A DNA stretch of 64,000 bases, from contig CAWHWQ010000001.1 of NCBI GenBank assembly GCA_963833095.1, positions 736,001 to 800,000 on the forward strand. Direction: 5' to 3'. This stretch comes from Vulcanimicrobiota bacterium (lineage in GTDB: Bacteria; Vulcanimicrobiota; Vulcanimicrobiia; Vulcanimicrobiales; Vulcanimicrobiaceae). The translations under genes were made by a program, and so were the position numbers. Of the stretch, positions 15,312-26,106 are shown piece after piece (the first letter of the stretch is position 1; every line of letters begins with the position of its first letter). The notes under the pieces are model-generated. The model saw only the letters and a program-made list of their open reading frames with translations. It had not been told where the DNA came from and did not search any database.

Positions 15312-15716
15312 ATGCCAACCGACTCCGTCGAGACCCTGCTCGCCCTTGCCGCCGCCTACGCCCGGGCTGTCCGGGTGCTGGAGGTCCGCGGCCTGAGCTT
15401 CGCCGAGCTGCGCTTGCTCGTGCCGCTGCTCGCCGCCGACGGCGGACGCCGGCCCACCGAACTCGCCCATGAGCTGCACCTGACGGCCTCGGGGGTGACC
15501 CGCGCCTTGCTGCCGCTGGAGCGGCGCGGGATCGTGGAGCGGCACAGGGACCTAAGCGACGCCCGGGCCTCGCTTGCGCTACTGACCCCAGCCGGCCGGA
15601 CGCTGGTTGAGGAGGCGCTCGAAGACGCCGGAGAACGCGCGAGCCGGCTGCTGCGCCGGCTCAACGTCGGTCAATCAAAACAACTCCAACGTCTGCTCGA
15701 CGAGGTCGGGCGTTAA
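15312..15716 (+). CDS. MarR-family transcriptional regulator
   Basis: ELAHELHLTASGVTRALLPLERRGIVER..D.RASLALLTPAG winged HTH. Confidence 0.92.
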   Translation: MPTDSVETLLALAAAYARAVRVLEVRGLSFAELRLLVPLLAADGGRRPTELAHELHLTASGVTRALLPLERRGIVERHRDLSDARASLALLTPAGRTLVEEALEDAGERASRLLRRLNVGQSKQLQRLLDEVGR

Positions 15717-15728
15717 CGCGCAAAATCA

Positions 15729-16062
15729 TTAGCCCTTCTCGATTGAGAAACGAATCGCACTTGCAGCGGGTGCCGGGTTTTGGACCAGAAGGTCGTCCAC
15801 CCAATACCGATCGACCCAAGAGATGATGCCGGCGGGGGCAAACGCAAGGCATCATGTGCACTGTCGCGCCATCTTCGTCGTCGTAAAAGACCGTCAAAGT
15901 GTCCGGCAACCCCTCAATCAGCACAGCGTCTTTAAGCTCAGAGAAGGTCGCGTGCTCTTGAGACTCGCTGAGCACGCTGACCCTTCGCAGTTGATCTCCG
16001 AGCCTTTCACGGTCAGACTCTCGGACATAATGCGAAAACCGCAGGTACGCCGAGATTTCCAC
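15729..16062 (-). pseudogene. Immunity-like protein (DUF6984-like), frameshifted paralog of 17184-17540
   Basis: Aligns with the 17184 paralog. An extra G at ~15848 (AACGCAAGGCATC vs AACGCAAGCATC) shifts the frame; the corrected frame reads MMLAFAPAGIISWVDRYWVDD...IRFSIEKG* (TAA at 15729). Confidence 0.7.
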
Positions 16063-16065
16063 GCC

Positions 16066-16392
16066 TTAGTTGCCCTTCTCAGCCATGCCGGACGGTGGAA
16101 ACCGCAACGGCGCGCCCGGCGGGGGCGGCCATAAGGCAATCACCTCCATGTCAAAGCGAAATCGTTCCGCCCAAGACAAAAGACCGCCAACGAAATGAAC
16201 CAGGACGTTGACGTCGGTCCCGTCTGCGTCCGCATAGTTGGCATCGATGATGTCTACGGAAATGCGCAAGCCATCTGGATAAGGCCACGCAAACCTAAAC
16301 GTATCATGTTCACTGTCCAGAACGGCCAGCTCGGCCTGCGCGAGCTGCGATTCGAAATCGGCGCGATCACCCGGCGGCAGCGCAATCGCCAA
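16066..16392 (-). CDS. Immunity-like protein (DUF6984-like), divergent family member; start uncertain
   Basis: FESQL, YADADGTDVNVLVHFVGGLLSWAERF matches the YDDEDG.V.M.L....G.ISW.DR pattern of its neighbours. Confidence 0.6.
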   Translation of the reverse strand: MAIALPPGDRADFESQLAQAELAVLDSEHDTFRFAWPYPDGLRISVDIIDANYADADGTDVNVLVHFVGGLLSWAERFRFDMEVIALWPPPPGAPLRFPPSGMAEKGN

Positions 16393-16432
16393 TCGCTGGT
16401 AGAATGCGCGTACGGCGGCATCGTATGACGCT

Positions 16433-16998
16433 CTACGTGGGGCAGTTGGGGAAAAGCGGCAAGTACGCTGTGCCGACTAAATACAGGTCCACATTAGCTA
16501 TCCCCAGCAGATACTCGCCGAAGTTCCTACCACCGGATCACCGGCCTGCTCGCAGTGGTAAATGTTGAAATTGTTGGTAATGGCTTGGTCAACTTGCGCA
16601 TTCGTAGAGCCGGTAAGGTAACACGCCAAATGTGTGGGCCAGAAATGACTGTCGTTAAACTTAAGGAACGCGTAGCTCCCGAAGACGGACCAGCTGCCCC
16701 AATTCGGATACAAAGCGATGTTTGTGCCAATGTCTTCGCAGCCATCTGAAAAGTAGAGGTAACCGGCGCCGCACGAGCCTTGCGTTCCGTATGGGGTATG
16801 CGGAGTCGACGATCCGCCCCCGCTGCAAATCCATCCGCCTCTTCCGTTTCCGACGCAGAGAGACTCGGGGTGCACGCGGGGATCCTTGATCCCGGTTCGG
16901 TAGTCGTTGACGATTGGAGAGGTTCCCTGTCCGTTGCACGACACCAAAACAGCCGCGACCACAAGAGAGATCAGGATTCGAGTAGCCGTCTTTTTCAT
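16433..16998 (-). CDS. Lipoprotein with putative C-terminal toxin domain, copy A; 0-frame stops at 16498, -1 frame continues to 16433
   Basis: Lipobox LVSC; HFWPTHL...QVDQAITNNF; -1 frame tail EYLLGIANVDLYLVGTAYLPLFPNCPT*. Confidence 0.6.
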
Positions 16999-17083
16999 CT
17001 CGCACACACCACGACGCCCGAGAGGCGCCCCCCGTACAATAAGACTAACATCCCCATTTTCAACAAACAATACGGCGCTTCGA

Positions 17084-17134
17084 TCAATTCAGACGAAAGA
17101 CAAATAAGGAATCGCCGATCGCCGTCCCAAGCTG
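17084..17134 (-). repeat. Duplicated 3' end of the PQQ-dehydrogenase gene (edge of a tandem duplication)
   Basis: Encodes QLGTAIGDSLFVFRLN* versus QLGTPVGDSLFVFRLN* at 18231-18281; the adjacent intergenic DNA is also homologous (offset ~1147 nt). Confidence 0.85.
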
Positions 17135-17183
17135 TAAACAGCTCCAGCGTTTACTCGACGAAGTCGGGCGTTAGCGCTCGCGA

Positions 17184-17540
17184 TCATTCGCCCTTGATGA
17201 TCGAGAAACGAATCGCACTTGCTGGAGGCGACGAGTTTTTGACACGGCGGTCGTCAACCCGATAGCGATCGATCCAAGAGATGATGCCGGCAGGAGCAAA
17301 CGCAAGCATCATGTGCACTGTACCGCCATCTTCGTCGTCGTAGAAGGCCGTCAAGGTCTCCGGTAGCCCCGCAATCGGCGCAACGTCTTTAAGCTCGGCG
17401 AAACTCGTGTGCTCTGGAGCCTCATTGAGCACCCTGACCCTGCGCAACTGATCCCCGAATCTTTCACGATCAGGCTCTGGGACGTAATGCGAAAATTGCA
17501 GGTACGCCGAGACCTCCTGTTCGGTCAGTAGCCGGGACAG
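17184..17540 (-). CDS. Immunity-like protein (DUF6984-like); start uncertain, possibly CTG at 17540
   Basis: (L)SRLLTEQE...GDQLRRVRV...FYDDEDGGTVHMMLAFAPAGIISWIDRYRVD...PPAS; directly follows the toxin-like gene. Confidence 0.65.
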   Translation of the reverse strand: MSRLLTEQEVSAYLQFSHYVPEPDRERFGDQLRRVRVLNEAPEHTSFAELKDVAPIAGLPETLTAFYDDEDGGTVHMMLAFAPAGIISWIDRYRVDDRRVKNSSPPASAIRFSIIKGE

Positions 17541-18141
17541 TTTGGCCTGCCGGGTATGAATGCGGTTGTCACGACAAAGTACGCGGGCACGGGTGTATTG
17601 ATGACGGTAAATACCCTGTACTTGGTACCGTAATCCCCATATTGCAAGGGTAATCCTTGTAGGTTCCGACAGCCGGAATATTGTTAGCATTCCATTGAGC
17701 ATCAAAATCTTGCGCGACCGCAGCCTCGTACTGATTGGCCGTGCTGCCGGTTAAATAGCACGCCAAATGCGGATTCCAGAAGTGCTCCGTATGAATATTG
17801 AAAACATAGAGAAGGGCAGCAATTATGTTGTTTCCTGTCCACATCGGATAGGTCTGCGCAAATGCCCAGTTATCGTCCTCGCAGCCACTAGAAAAATAAA
17901 GATACCCAACCGCGCACGGGCCTTGCGTTCCATAATAAATGGGTGGGACCGACGATCCGCCCCCGCCGCTGCAGATCCAGCCGCCCCTTCCATTGCCTAC
18001 GCAAAGAGACTCGGGACGCACGCGCGGATCCTTAATTCCGGTTCTGTAATCATTGACAACGGGAGCAGTTCCCTGTCCGTTACACGACACCAAAACAACC
18101 ACAGACAAAAGGGAAATCAGGATTCGAGCTGCCGTCTTCAT
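17525..18141 (-). CDS. Lipoprotein with putative C-terminal toxin domain, copy B; 0-frame stops at 17569, -1 frame continues to 17525
   Basis: Lipobox LVSC; N-terminus nearly identical to copy A; HFWNPHL...YEAAVAQDF; -1 frame tail YGTKYRVFTVINTPVPAYFVVTTAFIPGRPNCPGY*. Confidence 0.6.
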
Positions 18142-18230
18142 CTCATCCACTCCGCAACGCCAAAAAAGAGGGGCGTCCACATGCAACAAGACTAGCATCC
18201 GCATTCCGGGCAAGCAATACAGCGCTATGA

Positions 18231-19847
18231 TCAATTCAGACGAAAGACAAACAAAGAATCGCCGACTGGCGTCCCGAGCTGTTGATTTCCTCCCGCTGCG
18301 ACAGCGATGTACTCACGGCCATGGGCCATGTAGACTACGGGCGGTGCATTTACACCCGCGCCTGTCTGGAATTGCCAAAGCCGCGCACCCGTCTTTGTAT
18401 CGAAAGCGTCAAAATGGCCGTCGCCCTCCCCCAAGAGAGTTAGGCCTCCCGCCGTAGAAACAGACCCGCCAACTATCCCGCTATCAAAGTCATCCTGCCA
18501 CACGATAGTCCCAGTTGAGACGTTAACCGCAGTCACAGCGCCATAGACGCGCTGCCACTCACGCTCCATTGCTTCAAGCGGGGTAGTCGCCGTCTTCTTT
18601 GACGCCGGAATCAAATGCTGCTCGGACAAAATCACGACGTACCCGAGGCGTGGATCAAAAGACAGCGCAGACCAGGTCGCCCGACCAGCCCATGCGCCCT
18701 TTCCCGCGGTCGAATCTAGTGACGACAGGCTGACCGAGCGCCGCAATAATTCTCCCGTGTCGCGGTTTAGGATGTAAAAGAAGCCAGTCTTCCCTGCCTC
18801 GCCCACAGCCCGCGTAGGGTTCCCCAGAGCATCATTCGTTTCGAAAAGCACGGGCGGAGATGCAACGTCGAGATCCTTTAGGTCATGCGGAGTCTGCTGG
18901 AAGTACCATTTCAACCTTCCCGTCGAAGCGTTAAGCGCAACGATGCAGTCGGTAAACAAATTGTCGCCGGGGCGCACCGTACCATCAAGATCGGGCCACG
19001 GATTTCCCGTCGTAAAATAGACGGTGTCTGTTCTTTGATCAATGGCTGGCGTTGTCCAAATGCCTCCTCCGCCACGCTTCCACGAGCCGGCGAACTCTCG
19101 TCTTAGGACGGAGGAGAGAGCACGACTATATTCGCCGGTGTCTGATCTGAGGCGCGGGTGCGCCCCGAACCAATGCTGAGGATCGGTCGCAAACCAACGC
19201 CACTGCAGTTTCCCATCGCGCAACGAATATGAACTCAACGACCCGCGAATTCCAAGGTCGCTGCCACCCAAACCGACGAGAACCGAACTTTTGTACACGA
19301 GTGGGGCCATCGTGATGCTGTAGCCGGCTGAATTATCGGCCATCCGAACACGCCATCTTATTGCGCCTGTCTTTCGATCGAGTGCGAGGAGCGAGCAATC
19401 TAGGCGGCCGACGACAACAAGATCCTGCGAAACCGCGACCCCTCGGTTTACCGGGCCGCAGCATTGACGGAATCGTCCCACGAGTGGCGACAACTTCCAC
19501 AGGAGGTGCCCGGATTCGGCGTCAAGCGCGAAGACGCCATCATATGCACTGGTCAGATATAAAACACCGTCGTATACAATCGGGCTGGATTCAAATGGAC
19601 CGAGGACGCCCGTTTGGAAAACGAAAGCTGGTACCAGTCGCCTAACATTCGCAGTGTTGATTTCTGCAAGCAGGGAGAAACGCTGATTCCCGTAGTCGTG
19701 GCCGTAGGTCGGCCACTCAGTGCTGGATGCTGTACTGAGCTCGTCGAAACGAAAAAAGGATTGTTCGCTGTTTAGCTTTGCCGCCGAACATGAAGGCTCC
19801 ATAACGATGATTGCCAGAAACGCAGTCAACAAAAAGCCGCGACGCAT
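18231..19847 (-). CDS. PQQ-dependent (quinoprotein alcohol) dehydrogenase-like beta-propeller
   Basis: WPTYGHDYGNQRFSLL.EIN..NV, vicinal CCGPVNRG, TGNPWPD..RPGDNLFT, WYFQQTPHDLKDLD, G..LWQFQTGAGV. Confidence 0.88.
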   Translation of the reverse strand: MRRGFLLTAFLAIIVMEPSCSAAKLNSEQSFFRFDELSTASSTEWPTYGHDYGNQRFSLLAEINTANVRRLVPAFVFQTGVLGPFESSPIVYDGVLYLTSAYDGVFALDAESGHLLWKLSPLVGRFRQCCGPVNRGVAVSQDLVVVGRLDCSLLALDRKTGAIRWRVRMADNSAGYSITMAPLVYKSSVLVGLGGSDLGIRGSLSSYSLRDGKLQWRWFATDPQHWFGAHPRLRSDTGEYSRALSSVLRREFAGSWKRGGGGIWTTPAIDQRTDTVYFTTGNPWPDLDGTVRPGDNLFTDCIVALNASTGRLKWYFQQTPHDLKDLDVASPPVLFETNDALGNPTRAVGEAGKTGFFYILNRDTGELLRRSVSLSSLDSTAGKGAWAGRATWSALSFDPRLGYVVILSEQHLIPASKKTATTPLEAMEREWQRVYGAVTAVNVSTGTIVWQDDFDSGIVGGSVSTAGGLTLLGEGDGHFDAFDTKTGARLWQFQTGAGVNAPPVVYMAHGREYIAVAAGGNQQLGTPVGDSLFVFRLN

Positions 19848-19928
19848 GCTCAGTACCCGTCCGCTCAAAAGCAACTCCCTAACGCGTCCAATACGCCCAC
19901 GAGCCCTTTGGCGCCTAGGTAGAAGCCC

Positions 19929-23871: not shown

Positions 23872-25203
23872 CTACCCGCGTCGTGCCCGCCCGCGCCAGA
23901 GCGCAAATGGTATACCCAACAGGACTCCCGCGCAAGCGTATCCCGAAAGTTTGTGATCCTCCACCGCCACGGTGGCAACCAGGACGCCCAGAAGCGCGAG
24001 CGCCCCGGCAAGCGGCACGAGCACGCCTCCCAACCGCGCAACCGGCTCACCCCAGAAACGCTTGGCTGCCGCAAGAGCCGTGAGCACGAACAGTAGGCCC
24101 AGAAAAATGGAGCTTGCGTTCAGGACGAGCGTCAATTGATCGGCGGCGCTCTTGGAAAAACCCGTGACGAGCTCGCAGAGCGTCGCCAGCACGGTTACCA
24201 CGCCCATCGACCAGAGCGGCTCGTCGCGCGCGTCCAAGGCCCCGAGAACTCGCGGCAAGACGCCGTCGCGCCCCATCGCGTACACCGAGCGCGTAAGATA
24301 TAAGATTGTCGTCCAAAGCGTCGAGAGCGTGGAAAGCAGCACGGTCACGACGATCGCGACGCGCCACCACGGTCCGCCGAGCAGTGAGCCCACGTAGGCC
24401 AACCCGTCGGCTTGATTATCGGCGAAGCCTTGCAGCGAGCCCAGATGCTCGAACGCGTACATGCACGCAAGCAACACGAGGGTCGAAAACACGAGACCAG
24501 TGATGCCGCCCCGGCCCGAAGCGCTCGAGGTGTCGTTAACCTCTTCGCTGGTCGAGGCGCTTACTTCCCAACCGTCGCTCATCCAAACCGCAAGTGTCAT
24601 CGCGGTCACAAATCCGACGACACCGAACGATGCGGGCAAAAGCGTACTATGCGGCGCTTCGTGCACCGGCGCCGGCGCGTGCAATGCGGCGGCAAGCGCC
24701 GCGACGAGCAGGACGCCGATTTCAAGTGCGAGCGCGAGCAGCGTCACGAGCGCGGTCGGACGTACGCCCGCGTAGAGTAAGGCCGAGCTTGCGAGAATCC
24801 AAACGGCGCCGACAACCGCCGCCCAAACGGGATCTTGTTCGTGAGCCGGCGCGACCAGCGCGAGCGTATAGATTCCGGCCGGCACCGCGATCGCCATCGT
24901 CGCGAAGAAGTTCGAGAGGAGGAGCAGCCACGCGCCATAGGCGCCGGTATGCGCACCGAAGGCCATGCGAATCCAGGAATACGATGAGCCGGCGTTCGGC
25001 GCGACGCGCGACAGATACGAAAACGACACGGCGATGCAGAGCATGATCGCTGAGAGCGCGAGTAACGCTAGCGGCGCGGCGAATCCGGCCGCAACGACCA
25101 TCGGCCCCATGGTGGAAGCAAGCGAATATGCCGGGCCCATCGATGCCGACGCCAGCACCGAGATATCGAAGAAACGCAAAACGCGCGGGAGGCGGCGCGT
25201 CAA
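23872..25203 (-). CDS. APC-family amino acid/polyamine permease (in frame with the upstream gene in this sequence)
   Basis: MGPAYSL, PNAGSSYSW, GWEVSASTSEE, RSVYAMGRDGVLP; possible own TTG start at 25203. Confidence 0.85.
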   Translation of the reverse strand: MTRRLPRVLRFFDISVLASASMGPAYSLASTMGPMVVAAGFAAPLALLALSAIMLCIAVSFSYLSRVAPNAGSSYSWIRMAFGAHTGAYGAWLLLLSNFFATMAIAVPAGIYTLALVAPAHEQDPVWAAVVGAVWILASSALLYAGVRPTALVTLLALALEIGVLLVAALAAALHAPAPVHEAPHSTLLPASFGVVGFVTAMTLAVWMSDGWEVSASTSEEVNDTSSASGRGGITGLVFSTLVLLACMYAFEHLGSLQGFADNQADGLAYVGSLLGGPWWRVAIVVTVLLSTLSTLWTTILYLTRSVYAMGRDGVLPRVLGALDARDEPLWSMGVVTVLATLCELVTGFSKSAADQLTLVLNASSIFLGLLFVLTALAAAKRFWGEPVARLGGVLVPLAGALALLGVLVATVAVEDHKLSGYACAGVLLGIPFALWRGRARRG

Positions 25204-26106
25204 TGTCAGGACGATCACACGCGGATCGAGATGCAATTCGTGAAGCACGCGCTCGTAGTCAGAAGCACGGACGTCGTCCCATTTTTTACCAAGCAGCGCT
25301 AAAAGCGCGGCCTCGACCACGTTCGTTCCGAACGAGCGACCATCGAAGTCGGGCGTCGTGGTAATGAGCAGCGCCACCCCACGCACGCGCAGCTCCTCGA
25401 TGTTGGCTGCCGTCACCGTATTGGTCAACACGATCTTGCCGTCGAGCCGCTCCGGCATGAACTGTCGCATGAAGTGGAAGTCGCCCGCGATGATGTCGGC
25501 CTCGTCGTAATACTGTGGATATTTTGGCTCGGGCGGTTTTTCTTGTTTCTTGCCGGTCGGGTAGAAAAATTGAAACGGCAACTTGCAGGCGTCGGGCAGA
25601 TATTTCTCAGCCATCTCTTCGAAGGTGCGCAGATCGCGCACGGCGATATCTTTGTCGAGCGCAAAGATAAAATCACCGAAGAGGACGTCAGCGCCGGCGT
25701 CGACCAACGCCTGCGCCATGCCGAAGCGGTCGAGCGCGCTGACCATGAGCACGCGCTTGCCGCGCAGCTCGATGCCCAGGTCGTTCTGCATGTACTGCAC
25801 GGCGTTGCGCTCGAGCGTATTCTTCAGGCCGCTGCCGTCGACGACCGGTGTCACCTTCGCTGCCTGCAGCAGCCGCAAGCCGTCGCGCAGCGCATAGCGC
25901 TTTGACCCGGCGTAAAGGTACACGTCGATGCCGCCCAGCCCAATCGCGTCGACCGTGCCGTCGAGCTCGCGCACGCGAGCTATCGCTTTATCAAGCTTGC
26001 CGTCGACGCCCTCACGCGAGATATCAAAATCTTCGCCGAGAAGATTCACGACCGCACGATGGTCGCGCGTCGAGGAGCCAAGTGAAACCGAAACGATCTT
26101 CTTCAC
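25204..26106 (-). CDS. Conserved protein of unknown function, often labelled 'quinate 5-dehydrogenase'; no stop before the APC permease
   Basis: VSVSLGSSTRDH, DAIGLGG, PVVDGSGLK, GRSFGTNVVEA. Confidence 0.7.

Follow-up and report, generated by a model that had tools for sequence, protein, structure and literature searches.

The locus examined here raises the question of whether a cluster of short genes, in which two lipoproteins with a common N-terminus are each followed by small genes, is a polymorphic toxin-immunity system and whether it still operates in its host. The cluster lies in a window of 64,000 nucleotides, the whole stretch of DNA that was analysed (contig C1 of the source genome G000, that of a soil bacterium, positions 736001-800000; coordinates given without a locus name are those of the window). 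The genes form a 4.2-kb block between truA and a marR-family gene, with a guanine-cytosine content of 0.556 against 0.615, and are ordered on the minus strand as a PQQ-family beta-propeller gene, lipoprotein A, small gene I1, a remnant of a marR end, a remnant of a PQQ gene end, lipoprotein B, and small genes I2 and I3. The system to which they belong is probably one of lipoprotein-led polymorphic toxins, SitA/MafB-like, in the Vulcanimicrobiaceae, and the locus family is probably an antibacterial RNase-immunity system that has decayed here as two stacked cassettes.

The lipoprotein tip and its partner genes

The gene for lipoprotein A (17525..18141, minus strand, ATG at 18141) encodes a lipobox with its cysteine at residue 20, a leader, a Cys-rich linker and a predicted BECR-like tip, and lipoprotein B (16433..16998, minus strand, ATG at 16998) has the same architecture. 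An LVSC lipobox is common to both. Thirty-nine of 42 residues are identical in the leader and 19 of 29 in the linker, in agreement with the initial annotation, which had described two lipoproteins with a near-identical N-terminus and a Cys-rich linker; identity falls to 20 of 47 residues over the part of the tip that aligns and to 4 of 20 in a variable stretch. The same annotation had assigned differing tips to the two proteins, a claim that was not upheld: the alignment spans their full length (62% over 146 amino acids), and the tips are, judging by sequence comparison, homologous versions of one domain and two variants of one family. Its C-terminal motifs (HFW..HL-ACYLTGST and a V.TA(Y/F).P..PNCP tail) were recovered in both A and B, although the final strand is encoded in a different frame in both.

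Intact homologues of the tip were found in six of 401 genomes of the phylum, G000 counted, and a search of G000 for extra copies of the lipoproteins and small genes found none beyond the window locus. A wide search of 1.84 billion representatives gave 65 hits; 48 were kept and 17 long multi-stretch proteins were dropped (the three of these that were checked are HYR, fn3/S8 and LysM proteins). The tip ends at most 12 residues from the C-terminus in 46 of the 48 homologues; their N-terminal and middle regions vary widely and include several different lipoprotein N-termini. By a crude hydrophobicity rule, 19 of the 29 kept proteins of at least 190 amino acids have a lipobox, three have a signal-like stretch and seven have neither, several of these seven appearing incomplete. 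The tip also follows an RHS core in the partial protein P0062, where Pfam RHS_repeat scores 31 bits (cut-off 22), the RHS core match at E 8e-5 is below its cut-off, and the tip shares 42% identity with the tip of the lipoprotein P0012 (pairwise blastp E 5e-21). Plasmids and viral contigs were also searched and gave no match.

The tip is predicted to have a BECR-like fold with RelE/ParE and CdiA tRNases as its nearest matches. The model of the L019 tip, which is the closest intact relative of that of A, has a predicted local distance difference test score (pLDDT) of 93.2 and a predicted template modelling score (pTM) of 0.83, and runs strand-helix-helix-strand-strand-strand, that is, N-terminal helices and then a beta-meander. 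In a wide VIA search with this model, 24 of the first 25 rows were RelE/ParE/YoeB/HigB/BrnT or CdiA-CT toxin entries. The best Z was 6.8, and CdiA-CT EC3006 (Z 6.5, 75 aligned residues) had the lowest root-mean-square deviation (rmsd) among the top rows, at 2.6. An earlier model of low confidence (pLDDT 45) gave no Foldseek match and a VIA Z of only 4.6. The Atlas leads for the tip were EndoU_bacteria (0.90) and Ntox35 (0.89), both with low recognition; with P0003 as the query, Atlas yielded nothing usable, and PDB sequence searches with queries A3, A4, A8 and A9 gave nothing below E 0.4.

The conserved pattern of the tip consists of His-x4-His-Leu, a Pro, Tyr-Arg, a Thr in the last strand and a Cys pair, with the first His kept in 42 of 43 sequences, the second His in 40 of 42, the Tyr in 38 of 44, the Arg in 36 of 44 and the Thr in 40 of 42. 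A conserved S/T in the last strand is typical of BECR RNases, according to the part of PMC3482391 that deals with them. The fold is similar to those of the CdiA-CT tRNases EC3006 and Kp342 (Z 5.3 for the latter), whose active-site residues are given in the relevant part of PMC9086364 as K204 and T330 (EC3006) and K157 and T255 (Kp342). By arithmetic from the ends of the aligned ranges, assuming no end gaps, T330/T255 coincide with the conserved Thr and K204/K157 with the first His, and the tip residues would thereby match the known CdiA-CT active sites in space. Identity to the two tRNases is only 7-12%, and the proteins studied here differ from them in having no CdiA/CdiB carrier, other immunity proteins and an added Cys pair.

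Among the 13 tip genes whose downstream DNA is available, 12 are followed by a gene of 110-130 amino acids; the remaining one, in L040, is itself broken. In the window, the three small genes that had been annotated downstream of the lipoproteins are all present on the minus strand: I1 (17184..17528), the likely immunity gene for A, with about 114 amino acids and no signal peptide; I2 (16066..16431), the likely immunity gene for B; and I3 (15729..16062), an orphan copy of the I1 type. I1 and I3 share 82% DNA identity, and I1 and I2 share 29% protein identity (tblastn E 5e-4). None of the ten nuclease-tip partners tested has a hydrophobic N-terminus, whereas all six partners of a second C-terminus, described below, have one; the location of the partner, as predicted from these N-termini, tracks the tip type, being cytoplasmic for the nuclease-fold tip and exported for the other. 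Four of ten partner rows match Pfam DUF6984 (PF22480) at E of 1 or less, the partner in L043 matches it at E 0.0024, and remote homology of the partners to DUF6984 is likely because the best of the ten rows, from a relative, reaches E 1.6e-6. The partners in L007, L008, L019 and L038 are very distant from I1 and I2, and their homology is read from the alignment alone. A literature search for DUF6984 found no paper naming the family in the collection covered. The BECR-type tip, the DUF6984-like partners and the toxin-plus-immunity layout that had been proposed for the locus are backed alike by the fold search, the RHS-borne copy of the tip and the gene neighbourhood.

A second C-terminus and linkage to a PQQ gene

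Tips and partner genes were shown to be exchanged behind the conserved leader and beside one clade of PQQ genes. A leader profile gave hits in 68 of the 401 genomes, most of them weak, and five weak loci (L055-L059) were found on inspection to be unrelated lipoproteins. The strong hits outside G000 (E <1e-10) are in G017, G001, G397 (twice), G015, G165 and G172, three of the strong-hit genomes having belonged to the training set of the profile. All of them join the leader to a different, beta-rich domain of about 250 amino acids with an RTTIGVGE-like motif, and the leader in G028 also carries this second C-terminus. The expectation that the N-terminal module would occur on other C-termini therefore holds in the relatives but not within G000. 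The second type is followed by the gene of a helical partner of about 220 amino acids with the hydrophobic N-terminus noted above (L052:10-1647, L002:310-1920, L010, L053, L054 and L092). This second cassette is in tandem in G397 and broken in G001, G003 and G028. Searches of the beta-rich domain and the helical partner against Pfam, NCBIfam and PDB gave no match. The beta-rich domain was found in 21 other genomes of the 401 and also ends proteins of 600-750 amino acids. Among the latter, L093-L098 (G401, G056, G051, G390, G054 and G235) encode secreted proteins of about 600-660 amino acids with a conserved N-terminal region and the same beta-rich end, and no helical partner gene was observed next to those inspected.

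The PQQ gene of the window (18231..19874, minus strand) is intact and encodes a quinoprotein dehydrogenase-like propeller (Pfam PQQ E 1e-76) which scores 389 bits on TIGR03075, under the cut-off of 480. A close homologue is found in 23 other genomes of the family, and a cassette adjoins it in the eight best linked genomes (G421, G017, G003, G397, G172, G165, G001 and G015); a further locus, L014, encodes the same proteins as L117 of G421. None of 13 more distant PQQ genes adjoins a cassette, and neither cassette type is present at two close but split PQQ genes (that of G404 and the second copy in G006). In a quick tree that left out G404, the second copy of G006 and the unpublished G290, the 11 PQQ proteins linked to a cassette fall together on one side of a branch (SH-like approximate likelihood ratio test, 100). 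G015, which has the second tip type, is nested among rows with the first tip, and an exchange behind the same PQQ gene is therefore indicated. The cassette-linked proteins keep the vicinal Cys pair, and the Trp of the HD.WD.D motif, which precedes the catalytic Asp, is replaced in them, as judged on 7-9 linked rows against four unlinked rows.

Since kin share such features, co-travel on one island and a shared function account equally well for the link to the PQQ gene. At five tip loci with other N-termini, no PQQ gene lies within 8-14 kb. We give only a small chance to the wider proposal that a dedicated clade of PQQ propellers of the envelope is the accessory or delivery partner of the smallest known lipid-anchored polymorphic toxins in a three-gene antagonism system of Eremiobacterota, where a leader of 40 amino acids would bear either an RNase tip that acts in the cytoplasm, with immunity in the same compartment, or a domain that acts in the envelope, with an exported immunity protein, and transfer would proceed by vesicles or outer-membrane contact without TraAB, a type VI secretion system (T6SS) or CdiB.

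Insertion, probable stacking and decay of the island

The marR-family gene (15312..15716, plus strand; Pfam MarR_2) is the fixed left flank of the island. The marR-truA site was compared in 15 of 17 congeners: the island is missing from all 15, marR and truA are kept in all 15, and three of the 15 hold other small inserts there. The metagenome contig L016 has one intact cassette at the same site, consisting of the PQQ gene, a lipoprotein of 221 amino acids (P0003) and an orthologue of I2 that is 69-70% identical.

Leftover gene ends were found at the join between the two cassettes of the window. One is a copy of the marR 3' end (17136..17174, plus strand), in which 17136-17222 matches 15678-15764 at 72 of 87 nucleotides, and the other is a copy of the PQQ gene 3' end before B (17084..17135, minus strand), in which 17005-17135 matches 18148-18282 at 103 of 131 nucleotides. 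The order PQQ-A-I1-marR end-PQQ end-B-I2-I3-marR would most simply represent an end-to-end fusion of two units, I3 being the probable remainder of an earlier A-type cassette; both the stacking and the orphan state of I3 are likely to have arisen by recombination at the PQQ and marR gene ends. A PQQ fragment also lies between two stacked cassettes in G397.

Other insertions were observed among the relatives. In four congeners (L107, L118, L119 and L123) the PQQ cassette adjoins, at a second insertion site, a gene resembling the C-terminal part of what we take to be comEC. In G006, the second PQQ copy has a gene fragment downstream and, after that, a Cys-containing gene of 98 amino acids (L140:805-1451), a homologue of which, with 45% identity, stands alone at the marR-truA site of G014 (L029:11051-11329). 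This gene is possibly a third tip and partner type. Elsewhere in the window, an open reading frame of 744 amino acids (23872-26106) seems to unite two unrelated proteins, a soluble enzyme-like N-terminal half and an amino-acid permease-like half, either as a natural fusion or through loss of a stop codon.

The initial annotation had treated the locus as a working system, but both toxin genes are broken. Lipoprotein A has a frameshift near 17650, after which its tail continues in another frame to a stop at 17527-17525. In lipoprotein B, a DNA alignment to the intact P0003 gene of L016 places an out-of-frame deletion of 73 nucleotides between 16525 and 16524, and this takes out two strands of the tip including the conserved Tyr-Arg/His. 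I2 does not keep the GTG start of its orthologue in L016, in place of which it has GCG, I3 has a frameshift near 15850, and the frame of I1 is open and would need a CTG start, overlapping the stop of A. Since both toxin genes are broken in this strain, at most I1 would still be functional.

The locus is most likely a real relic. Four of five listed public runs were compared with it. Contigs of the public runs X1, X2 and X4, which come from one study and possibly from the source of the window itself, span the breaks in A, B and I3 without a gap; run X5, from a second study, covers only 16983-17236, a stretch without a break. The truncated B protein is also recorded on a 46.6-kb contig, and only one of 22 orthologous gene clusters (32.5 kb) elsewhere in G000 was found to be split. 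Sequencing error was rejected as the origin of the breaks on the basis of these gap-free contigs, albeit of a single study, and of this control rate. Programmed frameshifting in B was likewise rejected, as the deletion removes core strands and the intact relatives need no shift. Homologous cassettes at L012:1057-2273 and L040:1280-2100 are also disrupted by stops or frameshifts, so that the toxin gene appears to decay often in this family.

Proposed mode of action, alternatives and known systems

In the intact relatives, an antibacterial RNase would be exported by the Sec route, lipidated at the lipobox Cys and retained in the envelope, with disulphides that may stabilise the linker and tip. 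Contact between outer membranes, or vesicles, would then bring the lipoprotein to a neighbouring cell; the tip would be released from the anchor, enter the cytoplasm and cut RNA, most likely tRNA, while the producer and its kin would be shielded by the DUF6984-like protein, through binding to the tip. The relatives are diderm, with Omp85 found in all four complete ones. Neither Omp85 nor the T6SS protein VipB was found in G000, which is 81% complete, and the genome searches for PqqC, TSP_3 (for TraB) and DUF6984 had no match in any control and are hence uninformative. An outer membrane and labelled membrane vesicles are shown for V. alpinus in the part of PMC9758169 that treats its envelope.

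Several observations weigh against this reading. The fold matches are middling, none reaching a Z of 8; TrmO ties with the toxins (Z 5.6 in one run and 6.7 in another); and ParE, which is among the top matches, is not an RNase. A Foldseek check had been suggested at the outset, and the first ten rows are toxins (HigB2, RelE and PfiT), but all E-values are 0.09 or worse. The tip matches no toxin family in Pfam and NCBIfam, its RHS-borne copy was seen once only and without surrounding DNA, and the co-conserved Cys pair (37 of 44 and 34 of 34) suits an extracellular enzyme. On the partner side, the resemblance to DUF6984 noted initially stays below the cut-off in the window's own genes: I2 reaches 11.9-12.3 bits (E 0.19-0.24) where 24.6 would be required, and neither I1 nor I3 gives a hit. 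Tip and partner similarities are weakly correlated (Mantel rho 0.27, p 0.076, 10 pairs), and the partner in L019, whose tip is closest to that of A, resembles I1 no more than background. Finally, the second domain need not be toxic because it also ends secreted proteins of about 620 amino acids, several of them without an adjacent gene for the helical partner; its toxicity is less certain than that of the first tip.

The first alternative is a surface-anchored RNase for scavenging or defence that never enters other cells, its cytoplasmic inhibitor guarding the producer before export. Barnase and barstar follow this logic of an exported RNase guarded by an inhibitor. The lipid anchor, the 7-16 Cys of each full-length lipoprotein, the likely disulphide in the tip, and a leader of only about 40 amino acids with no translocation domain of known kind would all suit such an enzyme. 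We consider it unlikely, as the same tip ends an RHS protein, and the orphan partner, the stacking, the patchy range (six of 401 genomes) and the frequent breakage (window, L012 and L040) fit antagonism better than nutrition. A toxin-immunity pair whose RelE/ParE-like tip poisons a target other than RNA, for instance by ParE-like inhibition of gyrase, or acts in the envelope, finds some support in the VIA list, where the first row and the third to sixth are ParE-type entries, with ties within one Z unit. The His, Tyr-Arg and last-strand Thr, all nearly invariant, have the look of catalytic residues, however, and the lowest rmsd among the top rows belongs to a tRNase, EC3006, which makes a non-RNA target improbable. 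That the lipoprotein is a non-toxic variable surface protein which, with its partner, serves adhesion or the PQQ enzyme, and that the fold match reflects a common alpha/beta arrangement, would agree with the tight linkage to one PQQ clade, the middling Z values and the likeness of the second C-terminus to a beta-rich extracellular domain, but is very improbable given the five tip loci with other N-termini and no nearby PQQ gene, a cytoplasmic partner beside an exported lipoprotein, the RHS copy of the tip and the dominance of toxin entries in the fold list.

An antibacterial RNase-immunity system of this kind has known counterparts. It resembles SitAI in having a lipobox, a conserved N-terminal part, an exchangeable C-terminal tip of nuclease type, a downstream immunity gene, an optional upstream accessory gene and a mobile location. 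SitA, in the accounts given in parts of PMC5562445 and PMC8546572, has an escort domain of about 375 amino acids and is confined to Myxococcales with traAB, at 25-80 loci per genome. The proteins described here are about 200-250 amino acids in all (221 in the intact orthologue), too short for such an escort domain (SitA sequences were not searched for homology), and there is one locus in G000, whose host belongs to the Vulcanimicrobiaceae and is not a myxobacterium. The window family was not filed as SitA because the SitA escort domain and host range do not apply. In the sections of PMC3482391 on these systems, Neisseria MafA/MafB-MafI and the Amoebophilus APD1/APD2 effectors combine a lineage-specific N-terminus with a polymorphic tip, MafA being an invariant upstream lipoprotein and APD1/2 following a lipobox. 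The PQQ-propeller gene may play an invariant upstream role like that of MafA. In contrast to MafB and APD, no Pfam match to Maf or APD domains was seen here, the upstream gene is a quinoprotein-like propeller, and the location of the partner switches with the tip type. Since lipobox-led polymorphic toxins have already been described (SitA; APD1/2 in the same sections of PMC3482391), the idea of such a carrier is not new in kind. A literature search for a prior description of the system, including Eremiobacterota toxin-immunity, found none, although supplements, which it did not cover, may already list the tip.

As the window's own copies are relics, the value of the finding lies in the intact relatives. 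If the reading is true, lipoprotein-borne polymorphic nucleases extend beyond the myxobacteria and need hardly any escort domain to work; how a lipid-anchored protein of 200 amino acids reaches the cytoplasm of another cell then becomes a testable question. The BECR folds would also gain a tip family that has no name yet, DUF6984 would acquire a role in immunity, and a means of competition would be described for a soil phylum that is abundant and was first reported in pure culture in 2022.

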